This document shows positions 30,143-64,000 of a stretch of DNA of 64,000 bases, piece by piece. This DNA is from Escherichia phage PE37. The notes under the pieces were generated by a model. The model had not been told where the DNA came from. It did no database searches and worked only from the letters and a program-made list of their open reading frames with translations. The stretch lies in the sequence record NC_054929.1. One strand, written 5' to 3'. Numbering within the stretch: position 1 is the first letter of the stretch; every line of letters starts with the position of its first letter. The position numbers were made by a program, and so were the translations under genes.

Positions 30143-30147
30143 GTTTT

Positions 30148-30223: not shown

Positions 30224-30224
30224 A

Positions 30225-30299: not shown

Positions 30300-30308
30300 A
30301 ATTAATTT

Positions 30309-30395: not shown

Positions 30396-30399
30396 ATTT

Positions 30400-30474: not shown

Positions 30475-30478
30475 AATC

Positions 30479-30554
30479 CGAGGCATAGCTCAGAAGGAAG
30501 AGCAAGGACCTTCTAAGTCCTAGGTCGTAGGTTCGATCCCTACTGCCTCGACCA
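30479..30554 (+). tRNA. tRNA-Arg (anticodon UCU)
   Basis: Acceptor CGAGGCA/TGCCTCG, D-stem GCTC/GAGC, anticodon arm AGGAC-CTTCTAA-GTCCT, CCA encoded. Confidence 0.85.
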
Positions 30555-30570: not shown

Positions 30571-30921
30571 ATGAAAGGTAATGTTTATTTAGTAGTTCAT
30601 GATTTAACATTTTATTTTAATCACAATGACACGGTTATTTCTGAACGTGTAATTAATTTGCTTTATCAACACGCGGATTATGTTTATGTCGAAAACGAAT
30701 ATGGTCATTGGCAATTTCTCAAAAATCGTTCATTTGGCTTAGATGGTTACGAATACTTTGAACGTAAAGACCTTTTAGATAAAATTTCGTTATCTACACA
30801 ATATCAAAATCATAAGTCTTTACATAAATGTCGGCTAATTCGAAATGCTGAATCTGCTTATGAAGCAATTGATTTATGGCGTTTACGCCGTGAACAAATT
30901 GATGCTTTAAAAGAATATTAA
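30571..30921 (+). CDS. hypothetical protein
   Basis: 116 aa ORF starting 17 nt after tRNA-Arg, RBS GAGGA. Confidence 0.55.
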   Translation: MKGNVYLVVHDLTFYFNHNDTVISERVINLLYQHADYVYVENEYGHWQFLKNRSFGLDGYEYFERKDLLDKISLSTQYQNHKSLHKCRLIRNAESAYEAIDLWRLRREQIDALKEY

Positions 30922-31099: not shown

Positions 31100-31235
31100 G
31101 GATATGGTCGAGATATGGCCTTTTAAAAATATTGAGTAGCGTCAACTGCTTAATAACCGGGTTCGAATCCCGGCGTTTCGTACAAACACTTGCCTTAGCA
31201 GGTGGAACCCCGACAAGGTTGCCGCAAGGCTTAGA
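31100..31235 (+). ncRNA. putative small stable RNA (T4 species 1/2 rnaC/rnaD-like), boundaries approximate
   Basis: 390-nt ORF-free interval after the tRNA cluster with a tRNA-like T-arm (CCGGGTTCGAATCCCGG), repeated GAGTAGCGT, ending at a terminator; T4 has stable RNAs near tRNA-Arg. Confidence 0.3.
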
Positions 31236-31262
31236 CCCGACCGAAAGGTTGGGGCTTTTTGG
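31236..31262 (+). terminator. rho-independent terminator (copy 1)
   Basis: Hairpin CCCGACC-GAAA-GGTTGGG followed by CTTTTT. Confidence 0.7.
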
Positions 31263-31270
31263 TATAAATA
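31263..31270 (+). promoter_or_regulatory. late promoter TATAAATA
   Basis: Exact TATAAATA about 40 nt upstream of the 31311 ATG. Confidence 0.6.
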
Positions 31271-31310
31271 TAGTAGTATATTAAATCCACGAATTAAAAC
31301 AGGAAATAAG

Positions 31311-31784
31311 ATGAAATCATATACTCAATTTTTAAATGAAGCGGTGTTAAATGAAGCATCTAGCACCGAAATTCAAGCTGTCGCAAAAGCAGCCATTGCA
31401 GCGGGTAAATATTCTTACAAAGATGCTTCTGATGAATCGCGATTCCAGTTTGCACGCGACATGAAAGCGGAAGGATTTACGGGAAATGCAGTTAGTATGG
31501 CCTGGAAAAGTTTAGTTGCTACTGGCGCTGCTTTTGCAAAGGCTTCGGGTAAACCTGCTCCTAAAGCAGATCCTAAAGTCGCACAAGAGAAAAATATTGT
31601 TAAAGGAATTATCTCCAAATATGAAGCTATCCTTAAAGAGCTTTTAGTAATCAAAACTGAAGGCCAAAAACTAGCTCGTGCTTATAGTTTCAAAGATAAC
31701 CCACATGCTCACTCTCTTGAGTATGTTGAAGACATCCAAAAAATTATTAAAGACCGCATTTGGTCTGCTAAACAAATCAAATAA
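31311..31784 (+). CDS. capsid-targeted internal-protein candidate
   Basis: 157 aa; N-terminus MKSYTQFLNEA resembles the internal-protein capsid targeting sequence; late promoter upstream. Confidence 0.65.
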   Translation: MKSYTQFLNEAVLNEASSTEIQAVAKAAIAAGKYSYKDASDESRFQFARDMKAEGFTGNAVSMAWKSLVATGAAFAKASGKPAPKADPKVAQEKNIVKGIISKYEAILKELLVIKTEGQKLARAYSFKDNPHAHSLEYVEDIQKIIKDRIWSAKQIK

Positions 31785-31793
31785 CATTCTTAG

Positions 31794-31820
31794 CCCCGAC
31801 CAAAAGGTTGGGGCTTTTTG
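31794..31820 (+). terminator. rho-independent terminator (copy 2)
   Basis: CCCCGACC-AAAA-GGTTGGGG + CTTTTTG, near-identical to copy 1. Confidence 0.7.
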
Positions 31821-31953
31821 GTATCTAGGCCTTTCCAGGCCTCTCTAGACATCATTTAGTTTCTACCCTTTATAATATATTATCCTATCCTTTGATTTCC
31901 CCTCCCTGCCCTAGAATTCCCCAAAACTTTTTAAAAATTTTTTTCACAAAACG

Positions 31954-31984
31954 GTTTACATCCTTGTCCTTCCATGGTACTATA
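31954..31984 (+). promoter_or_regulatory. early promoter (GTTTAC -35, TACTAT -10) in repeated block
   Basis: tttttcacaaaacgGTTTACa...ggTACTATacaactatcaactac upstream of 32027 ATG. Confidence 0.6.
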
Positions 31985-32026
31985 CAACTATCAACTACTG
32001 ATACAGAAAACAACTTGGAGAATGAA

Positions 32027-32290
32027 ATGGATAATTATGGTGAACTGTTCAACTTCTTTATGAAATGTGTTTCCGAAGATTTTGGTCGTACAGTGAATGA
32101 TATTAAAGTTATCGGTCCTGACCATCCGATGTTTGAAACTTACGCAGTAATGGGTAATGAAGATGGTCAGTGGTATACTGTAAAGGTTGTGATTAACATG
32201 TTCACAGCAGAAGGTTATGTTAAACTGTCTTCTAAAGTTTACCATGATAACGACGAAATCGCAGAAGAATATTTCAATAATATGAAATAA
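32027..32290 (+). CDS. hypothetical protein
   Basis: Start moved to ATG after GGAGAATGAA RBS (MDNYGELFNFF); the track extension reads through the promoter. Confidence 0.5.
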   Translation: MDNYGELFNFFMKCVSEDFGRTVNDIKVIGPDHPMFETYAVMGNEDGQWYTVKVVINMFTAEGYVKLSSKVYHDNDEIAEEYFNNMK

Positions 32291-32293
32291 TTG

Positions 32294-32323
32294 TGTACAA
32301 ACACCAAGGATGGTGTTATTATA
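32294..32323 (+). promoter_or_regulatory. early promoter candidate
   Basis: GTGTAC-aaacaccaaggatggtg-TTATTAT, palindrome CACCA/TGGTG in spacer. Confidence 0.4.
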
Positions 32324-32358
32324 GACTTATCAAAACAAATACAGAAACGGAGAAATAA

Positions 32359-35449: not shown

Positions 35450-35980
<531 letters not shown>

Positions 35981-35984
35981 AGTT

Positions 35985-36016
35985 GTTTACTTTCTCCTAG
36001 AATTGTGATAGTATAT
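35985..36016 (+). promoter_or_regulatory. early promoter
   Basis: GTTTAC ... TAGTATAT upstream of denV. Confidence 0.55.
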
Positions 36017-36039
36017 TCACAGTTACTTGGAGGGATAAA

Positions 36040-38788: not shown

Positions 38789-39066
38789 TGGCTCAATTAA
38801 GCGCAGGGTTTGGTTATGAGTATTATACTGCCCCTCGTCGTGCATCTGTTGCTCCTAAGAAAATTCAAAGTCTTGATGACTTCCAAGAAGTAGTCCGTAA
38901 AGCTTTTCAGGACTATGCACGTTATCTTAAAGAAGATTCACAGGACTGTCTCGAAGAAGATGAAATTGCTTACTATACGCAGCGTCTTGAACAGCTCAAA
39001 AATCTACATGAGGTTCGTGCAGAAGTTTCAAAGTCTATGAATAAATTGATTAGATTTAAAGAATAA
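38788..39066 (+). CDS. hypothetical protein
   Basis: Start at [10 protein letters not shown] (TAATG overlap); 92 aa. Confidence 0.5.
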
Positions 39067-39068
39067 CT

Positions 39069-39098
39069 GTTTACTTTTCCTCTTGACTGTGGTATAAT
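39069..39098 (+). promoter_or_regulatory. early promoter upstream of regB
   Basis: GTTTAC-18-TATAAT. Confidence 0.6.
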
Positions 39099-39125
39099 TT
39101 TTCTATCAGTTAAGAGGAGAATAAC

Positions 39126-43228: not shown

Positions 43229-43251
43229 AGTCTCCTTCGGGAGACTTTTTT
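43229..43251 (+). terminator. rho-independent terminator (UUCG hairpin)
   Basis: GTCTCCTTCGGGAGAC + TTTTTTC. Confidence 0.7.
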
Positions 43252-43261
43252 CATTTTACCG

Positions 43262-43292
43262 GTTTACTTTCCATTTGAGCTGTGATACTATA
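43262..43292 (+). promoter_or_regulatory. early promoter in repeated block
   Basis: GTTTAC ... gtgaTACTATacaactatc. Confidence 0.55.
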
Positions 43293-43319
43293 CAACTATC
43301 GGATAAAGAGGAGAACATC

Positions 43320-43908: not shown

Positions 43909-44071
43909 AAAGCAGATGTTTTTAATGAAACTAATTGAAGAATATGCTAATGCAGTTTCTGACTATGAATGTTCTTCTCGGGAAAGAGGTACAGCTTTCG
44001 CCAAAGAAGAAATGAAAATCATGGTTGATGCTCACACAAAGCTTCAGAATTTTATTGAAAACGTCATTTAA
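43898..44071 (+). CDS. hypothetical small helical protein
   Basis: MKTEKQMFLMKLIEEYAN..., 57 aa, below track cutoff. Confidence 0.4.
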   Translation: MKTEKQMFLMKLIEEYANAVSDYECSSRERGTAFAKEEMKIMVDAHTKLQNFIENVI

Positions 44072-44073
44072 TG

Positions 44074-44106
44074 GTTTACAAGTTGGCAAGGTTATGGTAT
44101 AGTAAT
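44074..44106 (+). promoter_or_regulatory. early promoter
   Basis: GTTTAC ... ggTATAGTAAT. Confidence 0.5.
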
Positions 44107-44235
44107 CTTGTCAACTGCCAAGGAGAAGAGAATGAAAGTTTTGTTTGTTATATATGTGATGATTCAATATAATTACCCAATGTTTACTTATAATTTGGTG
44201 AATAACATTATTGATATTATTCAAAGGAGTATGTA

Positions 44236-44421
44236 ATGACAAGTGAGCAGGCTTTTAAATTAAGAGAATTAATTGAGACGTATAGTAGAGCTGTTCATAC
44301 ATCAACAATTATTGATGAATCAGCTTTCTCCGGACATGCTAACAAGATTAAATACAAAACTCTTATGGAAGAAGCTAAAGTAAATCTTGATTGTTATATT
44401 GAAACTTTAATTGGTAAATAA
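44236..44421 (+). CDS. hypothetical small helical protein
   Basis: MTSEQAFKLRELIETYS..., 61 aa. Confidence 0.45.
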   Translation: MTSEQAFKLRELIETYSRAVHTSTIIDESAFSGHANKIKYKTLMEEAKVNLDCYIETLIGK

Positions 44422-44422
44422 T

Positions 44423-44965
44423 ATGAAAGCTGTAATTGAAACAACTGATTTGTTCGGTAATCTAGTTATCGAAAAACGCGGTAATGTATATGTTCTGACG
44501 CAGGAAGACGATAGTATTATTATTCTTCCTATGGAACTGGCTGCGATTTTATCTTATGCTCCCTCAAGAGTTACCGGTGTAACTAATATTACAGACGACC
44601 TCCAAGTTCGTTTTTATCGTGGCCTTTACGGCGGTAATATTGAAACTGAATTTATGTGTCTTTCTATCAACAATTGGGCAACATTCGTTGCCAAGGTGAA
44701 AGAATTCTTGGAATCTGAAACAGTCGAAACACCCGAAAAGGCTAAACTTCAATGGGCTAAAGATCGCGGTGCTAGCATTATTAATCCAGTAGCTGCAAAT
44801 TATACTACGACTTTGGATGTCAAGACTTCTTATGAAGATGGCGATGTCGTACTTGTTCGCCAAATTGATGATTCTCGAGCACATATTGTCACATTTACCA
44901 AAGATGAAGCTATTGCACTAAAGACTTATCTTGATTCTGTCATTCCAACTATGATTTCAAAGTGA
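44423..44965 (+). CDS. hypothetical protein (paralog pair member 1)
   Basis: Start at MKAVIETTDL; C-terminus EAIALKTYLDSVIPTMISK. Confidence 0.55.
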   Translation: MKAVIETTDLFGNLVIEKRGNVYVLTQEDDSIIILPMELAAILSYAPSRVTGVTNITDDLQVRFYRGLYGGNIETEFMCLSINNWATFVAKVKEFLESETVETPEKAKLQWAKDRGASIINPVAANYTTTLDVKTSYEDGDVVLVRQIDDSRAHIVTFTKDEAIALKTYLDSVIPTMISK

Positions 44966-44971
44966 GGAAAT

Positions 44972-45493
44972 ATGTTTATTTCAAGTGGAAGTGGTTTAAT
45001 TCGTGTTGAATTTAAAAATGACATCTTTCTTATTCAAGGAGATGATATTATTAAAATGAGTTATGACGAAATCAAGAAAATTTGTCATGCTCTTGAAAGT
45101 CATGGAAAAGTGAACGCTGTTATTGATATTGGCGATTTATGGGTGACACTTTATGAAGTATCCGAAGGATTTAACATTGAAGATGAAAATAACATTTTAG
45201 CTATTGATAAAAGAACTGATTTGTTTGATGTATTAAAAGTTTATGAACAGTCAAATGGCGGAAGAAAAGCTGTATTGATTTATCAAAAACCGCATTCATG
45301 TGGAACTGCTTCAATCATTTCAAATATTGAAGGCGAAGTTGATACTTATATGTGTGTTTTAAAAGCTGGTGGTGACCGTCATCCGGATTTTATTTCTATT
45401 CGTCAAAACAATGGAGAAATTTCATTGTCAAAATCAGAAGCTGAAGCTATGATTAAGTATTTAACAACCGTTACGCCTTCAATGAAAGGATAG
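44972..45493 (+). CDS. hypothetical protein (paralog pair member 2)
   Basis: 173 aa; C-terminus EAEAMIKYLTTVTPSMKG resembles upstream neighbour. Confidence 0.55.
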   Translation: MFISSGSGLIRVEFKNDIFLIQGDDIIKMSYDEIKKICHALESHGKVNAVIDIGDLWVTLYEVSEGFNIEDENNILAIDKRTDLFDVLKVYEQSNGGRKAVLIYQKPHSCGTASIISNIEGEVDTYMCVLKAGGDRHPDFISIRQNNGEISLSKSEAEAMIKYLTTVTPSMKG

Positions 45494-45495
45494 TT

Positions 45496-45957
45496 ATGAT
45501 TATTAATGAAAACTCTTGGCACTATAAATTATTCAAATTGTTTAACGATGAATGGCAACGACCTAAGACACTATGTGCATACTTTTGGTCTATTGTTATC
45601 CCTACATTTTTCGTTTCTTTTTTCGGATGCACTATACTCGCAGGTCTAACTATCATCTGTGCAGAAATCATACAGAAATGGCTTATTTTTGGTAGTTTAT
45701 GGACTCTTATTCCATCAGCATTTATACTTGCTATTTTGCTTGTTTTACTTATTATCGGTTCATTTGTTATTCCTGTACATTTGCATGAAAAATATAAAGA
45801 TTATAAATGGAAAAAGGATTATGCTTTACACGTAGAAAATATTGATAGAGCGTATAAAGGTTTACCTCCTATTCAACCCAAGAAATCTATTATCGTCGAA
45901 TTTTTAAAAGCGCGTAAAGCTAAAGTATGTCCTGTTATTGAATATAAGGCTGAATGA
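45496..45957 (+). CDS. membrane protein
   Basis: 153 aa, 2-3 hydrophobic helices. Confidence 0.55.
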   Translation: MIINENSWHYKLFKLFNDEWQRPKTLCAYFWSIVIPTFFVSFFGCTILAGLTIICAEIIQKWLIFGSLWTLIPSAFILAILLVLLIIGSFVIPVHLHEKYKDYKWKKDYALHVENIDRAYKGLPPIQPKKSIIVEFLKARKAKVCPVIEYKAE

Positions 45958-46967
45958 TGAAAACAGTAATGAAAAGTTATTTTGGTAGTCATCTTTATGG
46001 AACTTCTACCCCAGAATCTGATGTAGATTTTAAAGAAATCTTTGTTCCTCCTGCTCGCGATATTCTTATTGGAAATGTCAAAGAGCATATGAGTAAAAAC
46101 ACTAACAACACATCATCTAAAAACACTAAAGATGATATTGACCATGAACTATACAGTCTTAAGTATTTCTTTAAATTAGCAGCAGATGGTGAAACTGTAG
46201 CGTTAGATATGCTTCACACTCCGCCTGAACTAGTGGTTAAATCTGATTTGCCTGATGTATGGAAGTTTATTCAAGACAATCGTTCTCGTTTTTATACGAC
46301 TAACATGAAATCCTACTTAGGATATGTTCGCAAGCAAGCTTCTAAATACGGTGTTAAGGGTTCTCGTTTGGCTGCATTACGTGATGTATTGAAAGTAGTT
46401 AATCAAATCCCCGATCAGTGGGTTGATTACCGAGAAGATGGAACACAAGGACAACGTCGCACTAAAGTTGAAGATATTAAGCATCGTCTTCCAGAAAACG
46501 AATTCTGTGAATGGGTGTTCCATAATCATGAGAAAACAGGTCCACAAACGTTCTACACTGTATTGGGTCGTAAATATCAGACAACGCTTTCTCTTATTGA
46601 GCTTAAGCAGTCTTTGAATAAACTTGATGCTGAATATGGTGAACGCGCTCGTAAGGCTGAAGCCAATGAAGGTATTGACTGGAAAGCTCTGAGCCATGCT
46701 TGTCGTGGTGGACTCCAACTATTGGAAATTTACAAAACTGGCGACTTAGTTTATCCACTCCAAGATGCTCCATTTATTCTCGACGTGAAGCTGGGTAAAC
46801 ATCCATTTAAAACTGTTCAAGAGTTTTTGGAAGATGTGGTCGATCAAGTAGAAGCAGCATCTACTGAAGCTTCTAAGAATGGTATGCCTAAAACAGTAGA
46901 TATGAGCTTTTGGAATAATTTCCTCGAACAGGTTTATCTTGAAAACCACCGAAGTTATTATAAATGA
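45954..46967 (+). CDS. Pol-beta-type nucleotidyltransferase-like protein
   Basis: N-terminal motif FGSHLYGTSTPESDVDF fits the GS-x(9-13)-DxD NTase signature; 337 aa. Confidence 0.6.
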   Translation: MMKTVMKSYFGSHLYGTSTPESDVDFKEIFVPPARDILIGNVKEHMSKNTNNTSSKNTKDDIDHELYSLKYFFKLAADGETVALDMLHTPPELVVKSDLPDVWKFIQDNRSRFYTTNMKSYLGYVRKQASKYGVKGSRLAALRDVLKVVNQIPDQWVDYREDGTQGQRRTKVEDIKHRLPENEFCEWVFHNHEKTGPQTFYTVLGRKYQTTLSLIELKQSLNKLDAEYGERARKAEANEGIDWKALSHACRGGLQLLEIYKTGDLVYPLQDAPFILDVKLGKHPFKTVQEFLEDVVDQVEAASTEASKNGMPKTVDMSFWNNFLEQVYLENHRSYYK

Positions 46968-46969
46968 TA

Positions 46970-46993
46970 GGGAGCCTTCGGGCTCCCTTTTTA
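46970..46993 (+). terminator. rho-independent terminator (UUCG hairpin)
   Basis: GGGAGCCTTCGGGCTCCC + TTTTTAT. Confidence 0.75.
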
Positions 46994-47016
46994 TTTCAAA
47001 AATTTTTCACAAAGTT

Positions 47017-47046
47017 GTTTACAAGCATAAAGCTTTATGGTACTAT
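47017..47046 (+). promoter_or_regulatory. early promoter in repeated block
   Basis: tttttcacaaagttGTTTACa-...-ggTACTATacaactatcaact; palindrome CATAAAG/CTTTATG in spacer. Confidence 0.6.
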
Positions 47047-47080
47047 ACAACTATCAACTGATACGGATTTGGAGAATAAA

Positions 47081-48049
47081 ATGAAAACTGTAACTATCAA
47101 TAAGGGTATCTACTTCGGTAAAGAAATCTCTGGAACTTTTGAGCTCTTAGGCGAATGGTTCCCAGATAATGCTCCGGTAGATGCACAAGGAGATGGTAAA
47201 GTTTTTGTTGAAATTGACGGTAAGCGTCGCGGTGTTTGGGTTTACAAATCAGACATTTCATATGATGGTGTAAAAGTTGAAGAAGTTAAAGAATCGTATG
47301 AAGATATGAAAACCCGCATTAATAAAAGATTTAATGTTATGGGAATGATGACGAATGGTATTATTAATGGAAATATTCGTTCATTAATTATCTCTGGCGC
47401 AGCAGGTATTGGTAAAACGTATTCTTTAGATAAAGCTTTAAATAAAGCAAATGATATTGGATACATTGAATATAAAAGCATTAATGGTAAAATCTCTGGT
47501 ATTGGTCTTTATGAGCAGCTTTGGAATAATCGTGAAGAGAATTCTGTCCTTTTGATTGATGATGTGGATGTTTTCTCTGATATGGACATTCTTAATCTTC
47601 TGAAAGCTGCTCTGGACACTGGAGAGACCCGTAAAGTCTGCTGGAGCACCGCATCTTCTTACTTAGAAGAAAAAGGCATTGAGCGTGAGTTTGAATTTAA
47701 AGGAACGATTGTTTTTATCACAAACGTTGACATTGACCGCGAATTAGACCGTGGTACTAAACTTGCTCCACATTTACAAGCATTAGTGTCCCGCTCAGTT
47801 TATTTGGATTTGGGTGTTCACACTAATGAAGAAATTATGGTCAGGGTTGAAGATGTTATTCTTTCAACTGACATGATGCAAAAGCGCGGTCTTTCTGATG
47901 AAGAAACTTATAAAGCATTATCATGGATGAAAGTCAATGTTAATCGTTTACGCAATGTTTCACTGCGTACTGCTCTTTATCTTGCTGACTTTATTATGAC
48001 CGACAAAAACGGTTGGGAAGAAATTGCTACGGTTACTCTTCTGAAATAA
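47081..48049 (+). CDS. AAA+ ATPase
   Basis: Walker A GAAGIGKT, Walker B VLLIDDVD; start at MKTVTINKG after GGAGAATAAA RBS. Confidence 0.7.
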   Translation: MKTVTINKGIYFGKEISGTFELLGEWFPDNAPVDAQGDGKVFVEIDGKRRGVWVYKSDISYDGVKVEEVKESYEDMKTRINKRFNVMGMMTNGIINGNIRSLIISGAAGIGKTYSLDKALNKANDIGYIEYKSINGKISGIGLYEQLWNNREENSVLLIDDVDVFSDMDILNLLKAALDTGETRKVCWSTASSYLEEKGIEREFEFKGTIVFITNVDIDRELDRGTKLAPHLQALVSRSVYLDLGVHTNEEIMVRVEDVILSTDMMQKRGLSDEETYKALSWMKVNVNRLRNVSLRTALYLADFIMTDKNGWEEIATVTLLK

Positions 48050-48151
48050 ATTCATAAGAGGACTTCTAAGACAAAAAGGCAGTTCAGAAATAGATTATAT
48101 GGACTGCCATCAAAAAGATGACTAGAATTAAACTGGTAAATGGAGGTAAAG

Positions 48152-48454
48152 ATGTTATACTCAAAAGCTCGTGAAATTTATGAAACTAAAATTAAAGACG
48201 CGGTTCATCAGTTCGCAACGACAATGCGTTGGACAAATGACTGGGAATACTCCAAGAATCATAAGAAGCCCTTGGTGACAAGAAAGGCTCATATGTTAGT
48301 GTTAATAGACCGTGAGCAGATTAAAGCCCGAGAAGCCCTCCAGAATCATAAAAAGGCTGCCTTTGAATGGTTTATGGATAACACTGCTCCTGAGACTAAG
48401 AAAGCAGTGAGCGCTTGGTTCAGTGGAAAAAATTGTGAAAGAAGTTTCTTTTAG
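48152..48454 (+). CDS. hypothetical protein
   Basis: Start at ATG after GGAGGT RBS; 100 aa. Confidence 0.5.
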   Translation: MLYSKAREIYETKIKDAVHQFATTMRWTNDWEYSKNHKKPLVTRKAHMLVLIDREQIKAREALQNHKKAAFEWFMDNTAPETKKAVSAWFSGKNCERSFF

Positions 48455-48456
48455 TT

Positions 48457-48486
48457 GTTTACAAGACTGTTCCTCTGTGGTACTAT
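48457..48486 (+). promoter_or_regulatory. early promoter in repeated block
   Basis: GTTTAC ... ggTACTATacaactatcaactac. Confidence 0.6.
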
Positions 48487-48514
48487 ACAACTATCAACTA
48501 CGGAGGAACAGAAA

Positions 48515-49042
48515 ATGAACGCTAAAGATATTTTCAACTTGGTAAACTACAATGATGGTAAATTTAAATCTGAAGCACAAAGTAAGTTCTTTAATGACAT
48601 CTCAATCGGAGGTGAAATCACTGTTGATGGAGGACAAATTTACAAATCCCGTTGGAATTGGATCGTTATTATTGATGAGATTGGTATTGTAGAAATTTAC
48701 AAAAATACGAATAAAAATCGTACATTACACTGGTCTCGTGATACTAACGAACAGTACAAAAAGGATAAAGCATCTAAGTTATCTCGTGTAACTCAAGAAG
48801 ATATTGAGTTCATCAAGAAAGATATTTTGATGTATGATAACTTAATTGCTGAAGAGCAAGCTGTTATTGATAAATTTGATGAGATTAAAGCTTCTCATAA
48901 AATTCCTGATTTTATGAAAGAATCAGTAAATGAACGATACACTCTCATTTCAGAGCGTATTGAAACTTACAAAAAGCAAAGAGCTGAACGCCAGAATACT
49001 CTTCGGAAGTTTGAAGAACGGTTAAAGACGGTACTTGCATAA
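48515..49042 (+). CDS. hypothetical protein
   Basis: Start at MNAKDIF after GGAGGAACAGAAA RBS; 175 aa. Confidence 0.55.
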   Translation: MNAKDIFNLVNYNDGKFKSEAQSKFFNDISIGGEITVDGGQIYKSRWNWIVIIDEIGIVEIYKNTNKNRTLHWSRDTNEQYKKDKASKLSRVTQEDIEFIKKDILMYDNLIAEEQAVIDKFDEIKASHKIPDFMKESVNERYTLISERIETYKKQRAERQNTLRKFEERLKTVLA

Positions 49043-49043
49043 C

Positions 49044-49068
49044 CGCTTTATACCAAGGATGGTATAAT
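49044..49068 (+). promoter_or_regulatory. middle (MotA-box-like) or early promoter candidate
   Basis: cGCTTTA-12 nt-TATAAT. Confidence 0.4.
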
Positions 49069-49097
49069 GGTTCTAAGCCCTTTTAATTGAGATTATT

Positions 49098-49505
49098 ATG
49101 AAACAGCTGATAATTAAAAGATTGAATTTATTGATATGTTGTTTATGTATAGTAATTGCATATGGTTATTACGCAATTAATGATTATATGCATTATAAAG
49201 ATTATGATGTTACTGTAGTTAATACCCTTACAGGAACTCAAGGAAAGGGGTCTAGTTTATCGTTTATTGCCGTATATGAACTCAAAGACGGTTATAGATT
49301 TAGCGAATATATTTCCCCAGAGATGTATTCATCAATAGAAAAAGGCGATAATATTACTGTAAGTTTACGTCCTTTCGACGTAAAACAGACATTGTTTGAT
49401 AATATTGTTTGGTTCTTTGGAATGGTATTAGTTCAATCTGTATGCGGTGCTTATATAGTCTTTTCCATCATATTCTGCGTATTTAGTAAAATTGAAATTG
49501 AGTGA
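49098..49505 (+). CDS. membrane protein (2 TM)
   Basis: 135 aa, N- and C-terminal hydrophobic helices. Confidence 0.55.
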   Translation: MKQLIIKRLNLLICCLCIVIAYGYYAINDYMHYKDYDVTVVNTLTGTQGKGSSLSFIAVYELKDGYRFSEYISPEMYSSIEKGDNITVSLRPFDVKQTLFDNIVWFFGMVLVQSVCGAYIVFSIIFCVFSKIEIE

Positions 49506-49512
49506 GGAAAAT

Positions 49513-50400
49513 ATGTCAGTAGTAATTAATAATGTCAATGCAGTAATTAAATCTTTAGTTAATAAAAAATTGAATGAATGGACTGTACTTCGTCGTGGAG
49601 AGCCAGATAAATTTTTTCATAGATTTAACCCAACTTTGGATTTGAATGTTATTGACAGAGATGTTCATGCAGAAATTTTAGATAAGTTTAAAGTTGATAT
49701 TGGATTTGGATTAGAAAAACATTTACAGCGAACAAACGGGTCTGGAATGGGTTTATCTAATCGCATCATGAAAGCCCTTAATAAAATTGGAGCATTGTCT
49801 CGTATTAACGCGAGTGAAATCCTTCGTAATTATAATAAAGGATATGACCTTTATGGCCGACTAATGCCGAAATTGTCATTCGATCAAATGATTGCGGATT
49901 TGTGGGAAAATCAACGACGATTATTAGCATTAGGCGCTAGATTAGCTAAAGGTCTAGATAAACAAATGATTTTTAAAACTAATAATACAGAAGACCTTAA
50001 ATGCTTTAAATTTAGTACTCGTGGAGATGACTATTACATCAGAGCTCACTCTACAGATTATGTCAATATGGGGCATCATCTCTGTTTAGCTTTTGAAGTT
50101 TTAAAAGAAGCCGGAACATTAGAATATTCATCTGGGGCAAAATGCCCGATTGGTTCAAATTGTATTTTAATTTATCGCCCGAATGAATCCAGTTCAACTA
50201 AATTGCCTACAAAACCTGTACCAGTTCGTAATAATGAAAAACATTCTGAGCAAATTGATTATTTTAATAAGCAAATTGAAGAGCTGAATATTTCTATTCA
50301 ACAATATGATGATGAAATTTTCAGACTATCTGGACTGAGTAGTAAAGCTAAATCTGAGCGTGAAAAGTTAATTAAAATTGTTGATTTACTTAAATCTTAA
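49513..50400 (+). CDS. coiled-coil-tailed protein, array member A
   Basis: Start at MSVVINNVN after GAGGAAAA RBS; about 250-aa N-domain + C-terminal heptad-repeat helix. Confidence 0.6.
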   Translation: MSVVINNVNAVIKSLVNKKLNEWTVLRRGEPDKFFHRFNPTLDLNVIDRDVHAEILDKFKVDIGFGLEKHLQRTNGSGMGLSNRIMKALNKIGALSRINASEILRNYNKGYDLYGRLMPKLSFDQMIADLWENQRRLLALGARLAKGLDKQMIFKTNNTEDLKCFKFSTRGDDYYIRAHSTDYVNMGHHLCLAFEVLKEAGTLEYSSGAKCPIGSNCILIYRPNESSSTKLPTKPVPVRNNEKHSEQIDYFNKQIEELNISIQQYDDEIFRLSGLSSKAKSEREKLIKIVDLLKS

Positions 50401-50408: not shown

Positions 50409-51428
50409 ATGAAAACTCGTTCTCAAATTGAAGATATGGTTCGTAATGCCAGCTATACTCGTGATGTTATGACATTTTTGTGCCAAAATAATTTAGACCC
50501 TGATAAAGTTAATCGTGATATTCACTTTAAATATATGAATAGCAGTGAATGGTTACGTCATTTTAGTAAAGCGGGATATATTACACAAATGACTGCTCGT
50601 GAGCAGCTCACCGATTTCTGTAAAACTATTGATTATAAAAATCCTCTATTTGTTCAAGGCGTTGGTCAAAGTAAGGTCGATTTATCATCTGGATTTTTCA
50701 ATCCAAATCATTATCGTATTGAATGGAGATTTATTGCTCTGTTCCGTAGACAATTAAAGCAAATTTTGTCTACTGCTAGTCGATTAAAAGGCTCTGATAT
50801 TAACTTAAAGAATCTGAAATTTGATGGTTATACTCTTCAGATGGAAGTAAGACCGTTAAAAGAAAATAATAGAACTGCACGAATTAGCTTTAAACCTAAT
50901 ACAAAAAATTCTCTTTCAATTTGTGAATGCCTTAAATCACAGTTGACAGAAGCATTTAAGTATATGGATGTTGTTGCTGCTGTTCAATCTAAGATTTTAC
51001 CTCGTTTTGAACGATTTAAGTTAGATACAACATCATATGAACTTGATATGATCGTTTCATTTAAATACGATTTTTTGAGAAAGGACGAAGTCCCGCAAGA
51101 GAAAAAGCAAGAAGTGCAAGATAACTTAAATTTATCTAATTACTCATCAAACGATCCTAAATTTTGGATGTATAGTTCAGGCAATAAAGATGCATGGAAA
51201 TTCAATAAAGTGAATTTTCTTCCTATTGAAAATCCGAGTCTTAAACCTGTTGAAAAATGGCACGCGGATGCGATTGGGAAGTCTATCAAGGCAGTAGATG
51301 ATGAACTCGTTAAAGCAACTAATGAAGTGTTAGAAGCTGAAAAGATGCTAGAAAAAGCTCAAGAAAAAGTCAAAAATCTCACGAAGCAACGTTCTAAACT
51401 GAACAATGCACTAAATGCACTGAACTAG
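50409..51428 (+). CDS. coiled-coil-tailed protein, array member B
   Basis: 339 aa, MKTRSQIEDMV..., C-terminal coiled coil. Confidence 0.6.
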   Translation: MKTRSQIEDMVRNASYTRDVMTFLCQNNLDPDKVNRDIHFKYMNSSEWLRHFSKAGYITQMTAREQLTDFCKTIDYKNPLFVQGVGQSKVDLSSGFFNPNHYRIEWRFIALFRRQLKQILSTASRLKGSDINLKNLKFDGYTLQMEVRPLKENNRTARISFKPNTKNSLSICECLKSQLTEAFKYMDVVAAVQSKILPRFERFKLDTTSYELDMIVSFKYDFLRKDEVPQEKKQEVQDNLNLSNYSSNDPKFWMYSSGNKDAWKFNKVNFLPIENPSLKPVEKWHADAIGKSIKAVDDELVKATNEVLEAEKMLEKAQEKVKNLTKQRSKLNNALNALN

Positions 51429-51457
51429 TTTACTTTGCCACAAGGATGTGGTATAAT
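51428..51457 (+). promoter_or_regulatory. early promoter
   Basis: GTTTAC-18-TATAAT, palindrome CACA/TGTG in spacer. Confidence 0.55.
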
Positions 51458-51485
51458 GTTCTTACTTTCTACTGAGGAGATTAAT

Positions 51486-55078: not shown

Positions 55079-55201
55079 AACCTTGGTGGGCGGCTAGATG
55101 GGAAACTGTAGAGCCAGAGCCGGAAGAACCGGTTTACACTGATGAAGAAACAATATATAATGAACCAACGATAAATGACTTAATTGATATGGAGATGGGA
55201 C

Positions 55202-56202: not shown

Positions 56203-58016
56203 CAATTGAAAAAGAAATTGAAGGATTGATTCATAAAACTAATAAAGACCTTTTAAACGAGAATGCTAATAAAGATTCTCGTGTTTTTCCAACTCAACGG
56301 GACCTTATGGCTGGTATTGTGTCTAAACACATTGCCAAAAATATGGTCCCGTCTTTTATTATGAAAGCGCATGAAAGCGGAATTATTCATTTCCATGATA
56401 TTGATTATTCCCCTGCTCTTCCATTTACTAATTGCTGTTTAGTAGATTTAAAAGGAATGCTTGAGAACGGATTTAAGCTTGGTAATGCACAGATTGAAAC
56501 TCCTAAATCAATTGGTGTTGCTACTGCAATTATGGCACAAATTACTGCACAGGTTGCTTCCCATCAATACGGCGGAACGACTTTTGCTAATGTAGATAAA
56601 GTACTTTCTCCTTATGTTAAACGCACCTATGCAAAACATATTGAGGATGCAGAAAAATGGCAAATCGCTGATGCGTTGAATTATGCTCAATCTAAAACAG
56701 AAAAAGATGTATACGATGCATTCCAAGCTTATGAATATGAAGTAAATACTCTCTTTAGTTCAAACGGACAAACGCCTTTTGTAACAATTACATTTGGTAC
56801 GGGAACTGACTGGACTGAACGAATGATTCAGAAAGCAATTCTGAAAAATCGTATTAAAGGTCTCGGTCGTGATGGGATAACTCCTATTTTTCCTAAGCTT
56901 GTTATGTTCGTCGAAGAAGGCGTTAATCTTTACAAAGACGATCCGAATTACGACATTAAGCAACTTGCTCTAGAGTGCGCAAGCAAAAGGATGTATCCTG
57001 ATATTATTTCAGCTAAGAACAATAAAGCTATCACCGGCTCATCTATTCCTGTTTCTCCAATGGGTTGCCGCAGTTTCTTGAGTGTGTGGAAAGATTCAAC
57101 CGGTAATGAAATTCTTGATGGACGTAATAATCTCGGTGTTGTAACGCTGAATCTTCCTCGTATCGCATTAGATTCTTATATTGGAACACAGTTCAATGAA
57201 CAGAAATTTATCGAATTGTTCAATGAACGAATGGATTTATGTTTTGAAGCTTTGATGTGCAGAATTAGTTCCTTAAAAGGAGTTAAAGCGACTGTTGCTC
57301 CTATTCTTTACCAAGAAGGTGCATTCGGGGTTCGTCTTAAACCTGATGACGATATAATTGAGTTATTTAAAAACGGCAGAAGTTCAGTGTCTCTAGGATA
57401 CATTGGTATTCACGAATTGAATATTCTTGTCGGTCGTGATATTGGACGAGAAATTTTAACTAAAATGAATGCTCATCTTAAACAGTGGACTGAAAGAACC
57501 GGTTTTGCTTTTAGTTTGTATTCTACACCTGCTGAAAACCTGTGCTATCGCTTCTGTAAACTTGATACTGAAAAATATGGAAGTGTAAAGGATGTTACTG
57601 ATAAAGGCTGGTACACTAACAGTTTCCACGTTTCAGTAGAAGAAAATATCACTCCGTTTGAAAAGATTTCTCGCGAAGCACCATATCATTTCATTGCGAC
57701 AGGTGGCCACATTTCTTATGTTGAACTTCCTGATATGAAAAATAACTTAAAAGGTCTTGAGGCTGTATGGGATTATGCCGCACAACATTTAGATTATTTT
57801 GGTGTTAATATGCCGGTAGATAAATGTTTTACATGCGGAAGTACCCATGAAATGACTCCTACTGAAAACGGATTTGTTTGTTCTATTTGTGGAGAAACTG
57901 ATCCTAAAAAGATGAACACAATAAGAAGAACATGTGGTTATTTGGGAAATCCGAACGAACGCGGATTTAATCTCGGTAAAAATAAAGAAATCATGCATAG
58001 GGTTAAACACCAATGA
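56199..58016 (+). CDS. nrdD: anaerobic ribonucleotide reductase NrdD (uninterrupted)
   Basis: 605 aa continuous ORF; C-terminal glycyl radical motif RRTCGYLG and Zn-ribbon cysteines. Confidence 0.95.
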   Translation: MTIEKEIEGLIHKTNKDLLNENANKDSRVFPTQRDLMAGIVSKHIAKNMVPSFIMKAHESGIIHFHDIDYSPALPFTNCCLVDLKGMLENGFKLGNAQIETPKSIGVATAIMAQITAQVASHQYGGTTFANVDKVLSPYVKRTYAKHIEDAEKWQIADALNYAQSKTEKDVYDAFQAYEYEVNTLFSSNGQTPFVTITFGTGTDWTERMIQKAILKNRIKGLGRDGITPIFPKLVMFVEEGVNLYKDDPNYDIKQLALECASKRMYPDIISAKNNKAITGSSIPVSPMGCRSFLSVWKDSTGNEILDGRNNLGVVTLNLPRIALDSYIGTQFNEQKFIELFNERMDLCFEALMCRISSLKGVKATVAPILYQEGAFGVRLKPDDDIIELFKNGRSSVSLGYIGIHELNILVGRDIGREILTKMNAHLKQWTERTGFAFSLYSTPAENLCYRFCKLDTEKYGSVKDVTDKGWYTNSFHVSVEENITPFEKISREAPYHFIATGGHISYVELPDMKNNLKGLEAVWDYAAQHLDYFGVNMPVDKCFTCGSTHEMTPTENGFVCSICGETDPKKMNTIRRTCGYLGNPNERGFNLGKNKEIMHRVKHQ

Positions 58017-58483
58017 ATTATGATAGATTTTATCCTTGCGATTTTGTGAATGGTCCTGGATGCAGGACTGTTCTTTTCGTTACAGGTTGTTTGCATAAAT
58101 GTGAAGGGTGTTATAATAAATCAACATGGAATGCTAGAAATGGTATTCCATTCACTGGTGAAACACTAGAGCAATTAATTGAATGTTTGAATAATGATTA
58201 TATAGAAGGATTGACTATAACTGGAGGTGACCCTCTCTATCCTGATAATCGAGATGTTATTCATTGCATTGTTCAAACAGTAAAAAATCTTTATCCTAAT
58301 AAAAGCATTTGGTTGTGGACAGGATATAAGTTTGAAGATATTAAACAACTAGAAATGCTTAAATATGTTGATGTTATTATTGATGGGAAGTATGAGAAAA
58401 ATCTTCCGACCAAAAAGCTGTGGCGAGGTTCAGATAATCAGCGACTTTGGTCAAATACCGATGGGGTGTGGAAACATGATTAA
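58013..58483 (+). CDS. nrdG: anaerobic RNR activating enzyme NrdG (radical SAM)
   Basis: 156 aa, CxxxCxxC (CLHKCEGC). Confidence 0.95.
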   Translation: MNYDRFYPCDFVNGPGCRTVLFVTGCLHKCEGCYNKSTWNARNGIPFTGETLEQLIECLNNDYIEGLTITGGDPLYPDNRDVIHCIVQTVKNLYPNKSIWLWTGYKFEDIKQLEMLKYVDVIIDGKYEKNLPTKKLWRGSDNQRLWSNTDGVWKHD

Positions 58484-58815: not shown

Positions 58816-59127
58816 ATGATTAGTTTTGAGCGGTATGTAGTAGAGAGTTGGAATGGTTTTGATATGTTCGGTAATGACTATTATTTCTATGAATGTAGTC
58901 TGAACCCAAGCTTCTGGGCTGGACGTGAACAAGACCTCGAAGAAATCAACGCTCGTGCCGATTTGTTAGGTGAACTGCCTACTACTTATTTCACCTTTGA
59001 TGAATCCGGCTTCGTTATCCAGGTTTATTTTCCTGAAGAAAACTCTGGTGAGGATTCTGTTAATCCTCCTTATTGGGCTTATCAAGGAATTATTTCTCGT
59101 GGAACAAAACTCGAACTTAAAGAATAA
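58816..59127 (+). CDS. hypothetical protein
   Basis: 103 aa ORF. Confidence 0.5.
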   Translation: MISFERYVVESWNGFDMFGNDYYFYECSLNPSFWAGREQDLEEINARADLLGELPTTYFTFDESGFVIQVYFPEENSGEDSVNPPYWAYQGIISRGTKLELKE

Positions 59128-59424: not shown

Positions 59425-59448
59425 CGGGCCCTCTGGGCCTTTCTTTCT
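59425..59448 (+). terminator. rho-independent terminator
   Basis: GGCCC-TCT-GGGCC followed by TTTCTTTCT. Confidence 0.5.
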
Positions 59449-59520
59449 CGCATTCTGTATATTACCATTCTAAGCTATCGTTCCTTTCTTATCATTCCCT
59501 AAAATATTTTTCACAAAGTT

Positions 59521-59550
59521 GTTTACAACGAGCTCAAACTGTGGTATTAT
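59521..59550 (+). promoter_or_regulatory. early promoter in repeated block
   Basis: tttttcacaaagttGTTTACa-18-TATTAT. Confidence 0.55.
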
Positions 59551-59580
59551 TAACACATGAATTGCCTTTGAGGAATTGAT

Positions 59581-59763: not shown

Positions 59764-60049
59764 AACGTATCGTCGTAAAGACTTGAAAGTTCGTGATTAT
59801 GACTATTTCGGAAAGCGTAAAGCTCCTGATGGGGTAAGTCATAAAGATATGGTTGAAAACATTTTTCGCTCAGATAAATGGCGTAGAATGAAAGGCATTG
59901 ATTCAGAAGTTAAAGATGAGCTAAATCGCCAATTACGTGGTGAAGTAAGAAAGTTGAAAAAATCAGTTTACATTGACGATGATTTTGATTATAATACTTC
60001 TCAACGAGTTGCTAAGCGCAAATCAAACGAGTGTTATCGTTACAGCTGA
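59756..60049 (+). CDS. hypothetical basic protein
   Basis: Start at MGKTYRRKDL; Lys/Arg-rich. Confidence 0.5.
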   Translation: MGKTYRRKDLKVRDYDYFGKRKAPDGVSHKDMVENIFRSDKWRRMKGIDSEVKDELNRQLRGEVRKLKKSVYIDDDFDYNTSQRVAKRKSNECYRYS

Positions 60050-60770: not shown

Positions 60771-60986
60771 ATGAATGAAGCTCTTATTAACGATTTGCGT
60801 CTTGCCGGATATGAAGTAAATACAAACGGCATTGGTTTAACTCAAATTGAAGGAAATGGATTCATCCTTGAGTATGAATTTAGCCAATGGTGGTTATACG
60901 CTAATTACGGCGAATTGATTGAATATGTTGACCAATTTGATTCACTAGATGCAGCTCTTGAAGCGGCTAAGTTGATGAATGTATGA
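60771..60986 (+). CDS. hypothetical protein
   Basis: 71 aa ORF. Confidence 0.45.
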   Translation: MNEALINDLRLAGYEVNTNGIGLTQIEGNGFILEYEFSQWWLYANYGELIEYVDQFDSLDAALEAAKLMNV

Positions 60987-61252
60987 AATTTATTAATATT
61001 TCTATTACTATTGAAAATTATGGCATTTTCTATGTTGACCAATACATGAAAATTTCATTTTTCCCAAATAAGACTGGTGTTGGATATTGGGAAAGTCATG
61101 TTTCTGAATTAAATGAAAGTGAATATGTTAGCACACATGAAAAGTTTTTAGACTTTTTATATCATGCTGATTTAACTAGTCATTACATAGATATTCATGA
61201 ATTTAAAAAGATGATGGAGAAAGTGTTCCAAGCATACTGCTTACTTAGATAA
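60983..61252 (+). CDS. hypothetical protein
   Basis: 89 aa ORF, ATGA overlap. Confidence 0.45.
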   Translation: MKFINISITIENYGIFYVDQYMKISFFPNKTGVGYWESHVSELNESEYVSTHEKFLDFLYHADLTSHYIDIHEFKKMMEKVFQAYCLLR

Positions 61253-62754: not shown

Positions 62755-62774
62755 ATAGGAGCTTCGGCTCCTAT
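62755..62774 (+). other. UUCG-tetraloop hairpin
   Basis: ATAGGAGCTTCGGCTCCTAT. Confidence 0.5.
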
Positions 62775-62824
62775 ATTGCTTTATAAATTTTTGGTAAAAT
62801 AAACCAAAACAAAGAGGATATTAA

Positions 62825-64000
62825 ATGAAAGTATGTATTTTTATGGCTCGAGGTCTTGAAGGTTGTGGTGTAACAAAATTCTCACTCGAGCAACGTGATT
62901 GGTTTATTAAAAATGGTCATGAAGTGACTTTGGTTTATGCTAAAGATAAATCATTTACTCGTAACTGTGCACATGATTATAAATCATTTTCAATTCCGGT
63001 TTTATTGGCAAAAGAATACGATAAAACACTTAAGCTGGTAAATGATTGTGATATTCTAATTATCAATTCAGTTCCTGCTACTTCAGTTGAAGAAGACACT
63101 ATTAATAACTATAAAAAAATTATTGATAACATTAAACCTTCTGTTCGTGTTGTAGTTTATCAACATGACCATTCTTCTCTTTCTTTGCGCCGAAATTTGG
63201 GATTAGAAGAAACTATTCGTCGAGCTGATGTTATTTTTAGCCATTCTGATAATGGTGATTTTAATAAAGTTCTGATGAAAGAGTGGTATCCAGAAACTGT
63301 TTCTCTGTTTGATGATATTGAAGAAGCACCGACCGTATATAACTTTCAGCCTCCTATGGATATTGCGAAGGTTCGGTCAACTTACTGGAAAGATGTTTCT
63401 GAAATTAACATGAATATCAACCGTTGGATTGGTCGTACGACTACATGGAAAGGTTTTTATCAGATGTTTGATTTTCATGAAAAACATCTTAAACCTGCAG
63501 GACTAAGTACTGTTATGGAAGGTCTGGAACGTTCTCCAGCGTTCATTCCTATTAAAGAAAAAGGAATTCCATACGAGTATTATCGTCTTCATCAAGTAGA
63601 CCAAATTAAAATTGCTCCTAATTTGCCAACGCAAATTCTTGACCGTTATGTAAATAGCGAAATGCTTGAACGCATGAGTAAATCCGGATTTGGTTATCAA
63701 TTGAGTAAGTTGGATAAAAAATATCTACAACGTTCTTTAGAATATACTCATCTCGAGCTTGGTGCATGTGGAACAATTCCGGTATTTTGGAAATCTACTG
63801 GCGAAAATTTAAAATTCCGTGTTGATAATACTCCTTTGACCTCGCATGATAGCGGTATCATTTGGTTTGATGAAAATGACATGGAATCAACATTTGAACG
63901 TATTAAAGAACTGTCATCTGACCGAGCTCTTTATGACCGTGAGCGAGAAAAAGCATATGAATTTTTGTATCAGCATCAAGATTCAAGCTTCTGCTTTAAA
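62825..64000 (+). CDS. agt: DNA alpha-glucosyltransferase (5' part; runs off window)
   Basis: MKVCIFMARGLEGCGVTKFSLEQRDWFIKNGHEV..., matches T4 AGT from memory; no stop before window end. Confidence 0.85.
   Translation, partial: MKVCIFMARGLEGCGVTKFSLEQRDWFIKNGHEVTLVYAKDKSFTRNCAHDYKSFSIPVLLAKEYDKTLKLVNDCDILIINSVPATSVEEDTINNYKKIIDNIKPSVRVVVYQHDHSSLSLRRNLGLEETIRRADVIFSHSDNGDFNKVLMKEWYPETVSLFDDIEEAPTVYNFQPPMDIAKVRSTYWKDVSEINMNINRWIGRTTTWKGFYQMFDFHEKHLKPAGLSTVMEGLERSPAFIPIKEKGIPYEYYRLHQVDQIKIAPNLPTQILDRYVNSEMLERMSKSGFGYQLSKLDKKYLQRSLEYTHLELGACGTIPVFWKSTGENLKFRVDNTPLTSHDSGIIWFDENDMESTFERIKELSSDRALYDREREKAYEFLYQHQDSSFCFK

Follow-up and report, generated by a model that had tools for sequence, protein, structure and literature searches.

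The stretch of DNA analyzed here, hereinafter the window, comprises 64,000 nucleotides of the Escherichia phage PE37 (NC_054929.1). The element in question is a recurrent intergenic block, whose copy at 47017 lies between the orthologues of the T4 genes nrdC.11 (45954-46967, with the stop codon at 46965-46967) and nrdC.10 (47081-48049), as established by comparison with the T4 record. A megablast search with positions 44000-50000 recovered 756 phage records, nearly all of them Escherichia or Shigella T4-like phages, at 95-97% identity across the segment spanning nrdC.11 to nrdC.6, which identifies the window as part of a Tequatrovirus, a T4-like coliphage; roughly 500 Tequatrovirus genomes match this segment. 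Its + strand corresponds to the minus (early) strand of T4, and all genes lie on this strand from ~24.9 kb rightwards, where the sign of the GC skew switches. Two features occupy the intergenic region at 47017:

46969-46996, + strand: intrinsic terminator of the nrdC.11 orthologue, recovered in the terminator scan, with a hairpin at 46969-46988 (stem AGGGAGCC/GGCTCCCT, C(UUCG)G tetraloop) and a T-run.
46997-47059, + strand: predicted early promoter of the nrdC.10 orthologue, with an A/T-rich UP region plus 'tcacaaagtt' and the -35 element GTTTAC at 47017-47022.

The terminator has a predicted RNA fold of -18 kcal/mol (z = -3.9) and, like the segment 43229-43252, combines a G+C-rich hairpin with a U-run at a gene end, as is typical of rho-independent terminators. 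Going by this canonical anatomy, the hairpin and U-run at 46969-46996 would terminate the nrdC.11 transcript. The promoter that follows continues with a 14-bp palindrome in the spacer (47026-47039), a TGg motif (47038-47040), the -10 element TACTAT (47041-47046) and a predicted +1 A at 47053. Just 3' of it are found a Shine-Dalgarno (SD) sequence, GGAG, at 47071-47074 and the ATG at 47081. The spacer is unchanged in the T4 orthologue of this promoter. The perfect palindrome that fills it, CATAAAGCTTTATG, contains AAGCTT and has T4 counterparts at 55375-55362 and in the Pe146839 block; its sequence is the same at both of these T4 loci, which are unlinked, and in every relative examined, bar a single change in Lv5cm, and it gives no stable RNA hairpin. 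Two entries of the open reading frame (ORF) track, at 46964 and 31892, had been flagged as artefactual in the earlier note, and they are indeed mechanical extensions across the promoter: the true starts are 47081 and 32027, and the resulting lengths match those of nrdC.10 and e.8 as annotated in T4 and its relatives.

The exact pattern GTTTAC-N18-TACTAT occurs six times in the window (at 28351, 28714, 31954, 43262, 47017 and 48457), in each case on the + strand, against 0.07 occurrences expected. A position weight matrix separates a family of 12 sites, denoted by the G of GTTTAC (28351, 28714, 31954, 32293, 35985, 39069, 43262, 44074, 47017, 48457, 51428 and 59521), with scores of 35-58 bits, or 16-49 bits upon leave-one-out, from the next-best match on either strand, which reaches at most 10 bits and falls within the range of shuffled sequences. 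The 12 blocks are spread over the segment from 28.3 to 59.6 kb, all of them on the + (early) strand. Of the six sites at which the block had originally been reported, five match the exact pattern and the sixth (59521) carries TATTAT as its -10 element. The remaining exact match, 28351, is the block that had been mentioned separately for its 10-bp inverted repeat, and the observation is enlarged from six copies to 12.

Conservation of the blocks spans approximately -51 to +7, far past both hexamers. The columns with information above the 99.9% null are -40, -38, -36 to -31, -16 to -14, -12, -11, -8, -7, -3, -1 to +3 and +7, and a MAFFT alignment is consistent with this result; the copies are therefore alignable well beyond the hexamers. 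The -35 element is GTTTAC in 11 copies and GTGTAC in one, with five of its six columns invariant and the third conserved in 11 of 12, while T-15, G-14, T-12, A-11 and T-7 of the extended -10 element are invariant throughout. Outside the hexamers, the conserved positions are A-40, T-38, the TGTG at -17 to -14, C-3, T-1, A+1, T+2, C+3 and T+7; information is also elevated over the A/T-rich, UP-like region from -51 to -37, in which A-40 is invariant. The leaders, counted from the predicted start to the ATG, measure 19-37 nt, trimming the previously given distance of about 30 nt to the start codon into a range. The palindromes described earlier for several spacers are likewise present (CATAAAGCTTTATG at 47026-47039, CACCA/TGGTG and CCACA/TGTGG), as is the 10-bp inverted repeat spanning a -10 element, with arms at 28361-28370 and 28381-28390.

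A generic sigma-70 scan was uninformative in this AT-rich genome, with 76 matches against 77 expected. Two near-consensus sigma-70 promoters of the form GTTTACA-N17-TATAAT, with 11 of 12 hexamer positions matched, lie inside ORFs at 55132-55161 and 59966-59995. Neither was counted as a block, on account of the complete lack of the extended features despite good hexamers and of their intra-ORF position, and they may represent either fortuitous matches or internal promoters. When viral contigs were scanned for GTTTAC-N14-TGTG-N-TA-NN-AT, the matches listed were mostly single and unrelated.

T4 early promoters (Pe) have reportedly been compiled by Liebig & Ruger in 1989 and by Miller et al. in 2003. 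Scanning the 34-76 kb region of T4 with the window-derived matrix recovered syntenic orthologues of 11 of the 12 blocks, with 93-97% sequence identity to the window blocks, and none on the other strand; the exception is the 32293 block (GTGTAC...TATTAT), which has no above-threshold matrix match in T4 and whose neighboring gene is replaced there. The +1 was placed at the A seven bases past the -10 element, a rule that was checked on the T4 matrix match at 133331: it yields a +1 at 133295, the very position for which a note in the T4 record names an "early promoter Pe133295". Applied to the window, the rule predicts starts at 28387, 28750, 31990, 32329, 36021, 39105, 43298, 44110, 47053, 48493, 51464 and 59557, and in T4 at, e.g., 55348 and 53907. 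Apart from that one note, the T4 records NC_000866 and AF158101 hold no annotated promoter features, and orthology to experimentally mapped promoters is hence based on the published consensus together with this single coordinate check. In T4 early promoters, GTTTAC occupies -36 to -31 (Nolan 2006), the early motif from T4 differential RNA sequencing reads TGTG(A/G)TA(C/T)(A/T)AT, and these promoters have been described as "über" UP/-35/TGn/-10 promoters with "additional regions of consensus" (Hinton 2010, PMC2988021). At the level of sequence, the identification of the blocks as T4-type early promoters (UP / GTTTAC -35 / TGn / TAnnAT) is solid. By homology to the mapped T4 promoters, the blocks would capture the host sigma-70 polymerase immediately post-infection, and the nrdC.10 transcript would start at ~47053.

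The second aspect of the blocks concerns their likeness to the promoter-early stem-loops (PeSLs), which had been suggested in the earlier note. In the phages RB49 and phi1, these elements combine a strong early promoter with an AT-rich tract, a stem-loop and SD/ATG, and inter-PeSL mini-circles have been shown experimentally; the stem-loops were interpreted as terminators or attenuators, with translation not mentioned (Arbiol et al. 2010, PMC2839356). In T4 and PST, PeSLs with the consensus TTTACW-N17-TAYWAT have been described near indels, including in the nrdC region (Comeau et al. 2014, PMC4122927). The PeSL reading has thus been published for T4 and PST with the same consensus, and for the present blocks it is supported by the cassettes at the 47017 junction.

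The exchange of cassettes was examined by chained BLAST against six relatives (T4, HY01, JK38, JE01, ECML-134 and Lv5cm), which yielded 53 distinct structural alleles. At the 47017 junction, three different ORF cassettes are found among four relatives, with a promoter block at both sides of each; this is the comparison of cassette content that had been suggested in the earlier note. HY01 carries a 161-aa ORF with its own terminator, the junction being in the -35 box; JK38 a 66-aa ORF, with the junction in the 'ctatcaa' box at +1; and JE01 and ECML-134 a 49-aa ORF together with a DUF4031 ORF, with the junction in the SD region (JE01). Overall, 23 of 106 breakpoints fall within -60 to +45 of a block start, as against 3.4 expected by length. 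Five promoters with in-block junctions (28351/28714, 32293, 35985, 47017 and 51428) account for ~15 alleles, and several of the inserts are flanked by duplicated blocks with overlaps of 21-47 bp. For example, a 245-bp Ip6 insertion with duplicated blocks at its flanks is present at the 28714 junction in JK38 and ECML-134; at 32293 the variant breakpoint in T4, HY01 and JE01 is exactly 3' of the -10 element (32322); at 35985 the breakpoints in T4, JE01 and ECML-134 are at +6/+8; and in Lv5cm, which is without nrdC.4, the left breakpoint is at ~+41 of the 51428 promoter. The events at 28351/28714 and 35985 belong to the internal-protein loci, which are known for shuffling (Comeau et al. 2014, PMC4122927). 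At the level of gene junctions the enrichment is weak and depends on the measure; junctions with at least four alleles number 3/12 at promoters versus 3/70 elsewhere (p = 0.038).

The blocks constitute the largest dispersed direct-repeat families of the early region and, because 40-70 bp of near-identical sequence are common to the copies, they are its main dispersed repeats. T4 Pe55348, the orthologue of the 47017 block, is the same as Pe146839 from -66 to +4; among T4 blocks at separate loci, 8 of 496 pairs have at least 15 of 18 spacer positions in common; and mosaic promoters join the spacer of one family to the leader of another. These observations support the reality of recombination between blocks: the junctions are directly observed, and the mechanism would be homologous recombination between block copies with 40-70 bp of homology, either intragenomic or between co-infecting relatives, which would insert, delete or swap the intervening small ORFs. 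Taken together, the blocks are very probably sigma-70 early promoters that also serve as recombining PeSL modules, each with a stem-loop in the form of an upstream terminator or a spacer-leader hairpin.

Against this understanding stand several observations that favor a simpler one, namely that the blocks are early promoters only, their similarity reflecting selection for strong polymerase binding and their position at variable junctions being a side effect of indel-tolerant intergenic DNA. The extended T4 early consensus has been ascribed to polymerase contacts (Hinton 2010, PMC2988021). With the six relatives, the frequency of junctions with any variant is not significantly raised at promoters (7/12 versus 33/70 for the others, Fisher p = 0.54), the mean number of alleles per junction is 1.58 versus 0.76 (p = 0.057), and non-promoter junctions with gaps of at least 40 nt are similarly variable (in a comparison computed before the 47017 junction was corrected). 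A further point against the main reading is that the variants are mostly insertions of homing endonucleases and introns (mobB, mobC, mobD, segB, I-TevII) or block-free replacements. However, selection on polymerase binding leaves unaccounted for the identity at distant loci of spacers that the polymerase does not read (the 8 of 496 pairs and the Pe55348/Pe146839 correspondence), the mixing of spacer and leader families in mosaic promoters, the cassettes flanked by duplicated blocks with their overlaps and with junctions in conserved boxes, and the experimentally demonstrated mini-circles of RB49/phi1. A role confined to promotion is hence unlikely.

At the same time, the blocks are one contributor to shuffling and not the delimiters of all accessory cassettes, because most variants lie elsewhere and a UUCG terminator is present at two blocks only. 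Homing endonucleases explain a large share of the structural variation. The window is without the T4 nrdD intron/I-TevII, mobC, mobB and mobD (56734, 58013-58033, 62809-62834 and 44990-45953), and other endonuclease genes are found at different sites in Lv5cm and JE01, e.g., 3' of nrdC.10 at 48028. The exchange at gene 49.3, which has no block nearby, was likewise excluded by Comeau et al. 2014 (PMC4122927).

The stem-loop component differs between the blocks. The remaining promoters, all on the + strand, and a duplicated terminator in their vicinity are as follows:

28331-28393, + strand: early promoter 5' of the ipI orthologue, with hairpin arms 28361-28373/28378-28390 around the -10 element (-17.4 kcal/mol, z = -6.3).
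28694-28756, + strand: early promoter 5' of the trna.4 orthologue, with the 7-bp dyad ATAGGGT/ACCCTAT across the -10 element.
31230-31265, + strand: left copy of the duplicated terminator, 94% identical to 31789-31824 (repeat family D8).
31789-31824, + strand: right copy of the duplicated terminator (repeat family D8), recovered in the terminator scan.
31934-31996, + strand: early promoter 5' of the e.8 orthologue (ATG at 32027), identified by matrix match.
32273-32335, + strand: early promoter GTGTAC...TATTAT 5' of a 58-aa ORF, with the spacer hairpin AACACCA/TGGTGTT.
35965-36035, + strand: early promoter heading the internal-protein locus, with hairpin arms 35991-36008/36017-36035 that include the SD (-18.1 kcal/mol, z = -4.3).
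39049-39121, + strand: early promoter of the regB orthologue, with hairpin arms 39075-39092/39103-39121 that include the SD AAGAGGAG (-21.4 kcal/mol, z = -5.9).
43229-43304, + strand: UUCG terminator (43229-43246 plus a T-run to 43252; -10.8 kcal/mol, z = -4.1), then the early promoter of the mobD.5 orthologue.
44054-44116, + strand: early promoter 5' of the mobD.2 orthologue, with a 15-bp hairpin 44081-44095/44102-44116 across the -10 element and the predicted +1 (-19 kcal/mol, z = -5.0) and covariation.
48437-48511, + strand: early promoter of the nrdC.8 orthologue, with hairpin arms 48467-48481/48497-48511 that sequester the SD GGAGG (-23.2 kcal/mol, z = -6.7).
51408-51470, + strand: early promoter of the nrdC.4 orthologue, with the spacer hairpin CCACA/TGTGG.
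59501-59563, + strand: early promoter 5' of the 55.6 orthologue, with a terminator-like hairpin at 59426-59440, ~80 nt upstream.

Three of the 12 blocks have a terminator-like hairpin at most 120 nt upstream and, in five, a strong hairpin (no weaker than -15.7 kcal/mol) is embedded, whereas the rest have short spacer dyads or, in one case, a terminator ~140 nt upstream. The earlier statement that the blocks often follow a UUCG terminator holds for those preceded by the hairpins at 43229-43246 and 46969-46988, and not for the other 10 of the 12. At 62755-62774, where a gene ends, there is another UUCG hairpin, AUAGGAGCUUCGGCUCCUAU; it is without a clear U-run and no early-promoter block comes after it. 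A search of the whole window with the Rfam covariance models at the gathering score recovered 10 tRNAs only, with no family at the promoter blocks.

Analysis of the embedded hairpins revealed that the variable spacer (-30 to -13) tends to be complementary to the leader of its own promoter. Among the 12 window blocks, the cognate spacer-leader duplexes average -11.5 kcal/mol as compared with -7.5 kcal/mol for non-cognate combinations (permutation p = 0.00015). The tendency was replicated in 21 T4 early promoters outside the window-orthologous region (-11.3 versus -7.2, with none of 20,000 permutations as extreme) and, weakly, in RB69, where the T4-derived matrix detects few promoters and a small sample of seven found with a relaxed regular expression gave p = 0.004. 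In the pooled set, a stability of at least 14 kcal/mol (i.e., -14) is attained by 39% of cognate pairs versus 4% of non-cognate ones. The strong embedded hairpins of the window are those at 28351, 35985, 39069, 44074 and 48457 (-15.7 to -23.8 kcal/mol, z from -4.3 to -6.7). The SD lies within the 3' arm in 7-8 of the 13 strong cases, among them regB, nrdC.8, the first internal-protein gene and T4 Pe8182, Pe166771, Pe136300 and Pe123057. The predicted start sits in the loop of the hairpin, which therefore cannot form in the promoter's own transcript and is possible only in read-through RNA. Further, with the window and T4 pooled, a strong embedded hairpin is found in none of the eight promoters with an intrinsic terminator at most 120 nt upstream, versus 13 of the 25 without one (one-sided p = 0.009). 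The hairpins were considered as intrinsic terminators in their own right, and this was rejected as no U-run follows them.

These features suggest that a module would obtain its stem-loop in one of two ways, from a terminator that precedes it or from the pairing of the promoter's spacer with its own leader. Where the terminator is lacking, RNA reading through from upstream would fold into the spacer-leader hairpin and, with the SD covered, the gene would be silent on that RNA, by analogy with the T4 genes e, soc, 49 and I-TevI, in which translation is controlled by a promoter inside a hairpin (Uzan & Miller 2010, PMC3014915). The SD-covered genes would then be translated mainly from the transcript of their own promoter. 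In more general terms, it is tentatively proposed, on the strength of these complementarity patterns, that early-promoter spacers may have co-evolved with their own leaders to give a read-through-only, often SD-hiding hairpin, that terminator-less early genes may be translated essentially from their own promoter, and that promoter, hairpin and leader may form one exchange unit. A few observations argue for caution in this regard. In the 47017 promoter, a member of the terminator class, any embedded RNA hairpin falls short of significance (z = +0.7), and the sense-strand bias of folding noted below is partly compositional, with a baseline of 69% in strong non-cognate pairs. Additionally, Lv5cm 7719 and T4 Pe27044 are apparently recombinant, with spacer and leader of different families joined within the TACTAT/+1 core, and spacer-leader complementarity is lost in both. 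A search of T4 reviews, as distinct from the older T4 papers (Liebig & Rüger 1989; Wilkens & Rüger 1994; Miller et al. 2003), did not turn up the embedded-hairpin rule for early promoters, and no novelty is claimed for it.

The inverted repeats might instead act as DNA, e.g., as cruciforms cut by endonuclease VII, and be recombination hot spots rather than RNA structures. Several near-perfect palindromes centered on the -10 element, and the coincidence of inverted repeats with recombination junctions, are in line with such a role. However, G.U pairs make up 25 of the 183 stem pairs, and in 13 of 13 strong cases folding is better for the sense than for the antisense strand. Orthologues and paralogues vary along an A-U / G.U / G-C series, the changes between orthologues passing via G.U intermediates, and in one hairpin family two pairs have changed in a compensatory manner and 105 of 105 cells are paired. 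The absence of hairpins precisely where an upstream terminator halts read-through RNA is also sensible for RNA and not for DNA. A DNA-level role is accordingly quite improbable. Still less likely is the possibility that the spacer palindromes are operators of a dimeric phage or host repressor that ends early transcription. The perfect 14-bp palindrome at 47026-47039 and the short dyads in several other spacers would suit such a protein, and the shut-off of T4 early promoters is incompletely explained (Hinton 2010, PMC2988021); however, the sequence and position of the dyads vary among promoters without a common site, many of the 3' arms fall within transcribed leader sequence or the SD, and the tolerance of G.U on the sense strand only points to RNA and not to a DNA-binding protein. 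The dyads were rejected as operators on the ground that they have no sequence in common. Finally, although the blocks recur, as dispersed repeats, at the borders of cassettes and many homing endonuclease genes differ among the compared genomes, it is highly implausible that they are the ends of mobile elements moved by a dedicated recombinase or homing endonuclease, given that the small cassettes carry no recombinase or endonuclease gene (their ORFs being orphans or domains of unknown function), that there are no target-site duplications apart from the blocks, and that the junction site varies (-35 box in HY01, +1 box in JK38, SD region in JE01), as in homologous and not site-specific exchange.

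Several differences from the relatives were observed elsewhere in the early region. Directly 3' of the mobD.2 orthologue, the ~590 bp at 44237-44830 are unlike all six relatives, which hold 400-670 bp of other sequence at this place. A 157-aa ORF without a Pfam match (31311-31784) is bracketed not by promoters but by the 36-bp terminator duplicate; it is absent in T4, JE01 and Lv5cm, with a flank overlap of 35 bp, and ECML-134 has an additional 634-bp insertion at the duplicated-terminator repeat (31230-31824). The region 29727-30554 contains 10 tRNA genes (Gln, Leu, Gly, Pro, Ser, Thr, Met, Tyr, Asn and Arg) versus eight in T4, and the T4 segB homing-endonuclease gene is substituted by a different 116-aa ORF (30571-30921). 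Two further ORFs are without a T4 counterpart, one encoding an 89-aa DUF7200 protein (60983-61252) and the other a 103-aa product with no Pfam match (58816-59127), and neither of these insertions adjoins an early-promoter block.

Both the T4 early promoters and the PeSL reading are already known for this phage group and region. For the annotation of the genome, the value of the present analysis lies in the correction of two gene starts and the placement of 12 predicted transcription starts and of the terminators, and the block family helps to explain why the region differs between relatives. If the proposal regarding the spacer-leader hairpins is true, their alternation with terminators could explain how genes are individually controlled in a dense, read-through-prone early region, and why promoter-leader modules rather than bare ORFs would be the units of exchange. 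It would also make the principle seen at a few late promoters (e, soc, 49 and I-TevI) into a design rule that holds for early promoters genome-wide, and the PeSL stem-loop would gain a function other than termination.

These elements may be compared with four known systems. C(UUCG)G tetraloop intrinsic terminators have reportedly been described in T4 intercistronic regions by Tuerk et al. in 1988, and the hairpins at 46969-46996 and 43229-43252 resemble them in the G+C-rich stem, the UUCG loop closed by a C-G pair and the T-run; such a terminator lies directly upstream of just two of the 12 promoter blocks of the window. With the T4 early promoters the blocks share GTTTAC at -36 to -31, TGn, TA(C/T)(A/T)AT at -12 to -7, the A/T-rich UP region, the extra conservation at +1, the early strand and the position upstream of early genes, and there is no essential difference between the two.

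With the PeSLs they have in common that one short intergenic module unites a sigma-70-type early promoter with an AT-rich tract, a stem-loop and SD/ATG. The position of the stem-loop relative to the promoter varies in both and may be upstream, internal or spanning; at five promoters the blocks also adjoin indels or replacements of small ORFs, and the T4/PST consensus fits the blocks. However, the published stem-loops of T4/PST are just upstream of the promoter, whereas the modules analyzed here that lack an upstream terminator mostly carry them across the -10/+1 region, and in 7-8 of the strong cases of the window and T4 the stem-loop extends to the SD. In this last respect, a parallel exists with e, soc, 49 and I-TevI, in which the SD is likewise sequestered in a helix unique to transcripts from an upstream promoter and the location of a promoter within the helix yields a translatable transcript without the 5' arm. 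The internal promoter of those genes is a late one and their expression is delayed, whereas in the window the promoter would be an early one and the 5' arm would be its own -35/-10 spacer, as judged from the sequence.

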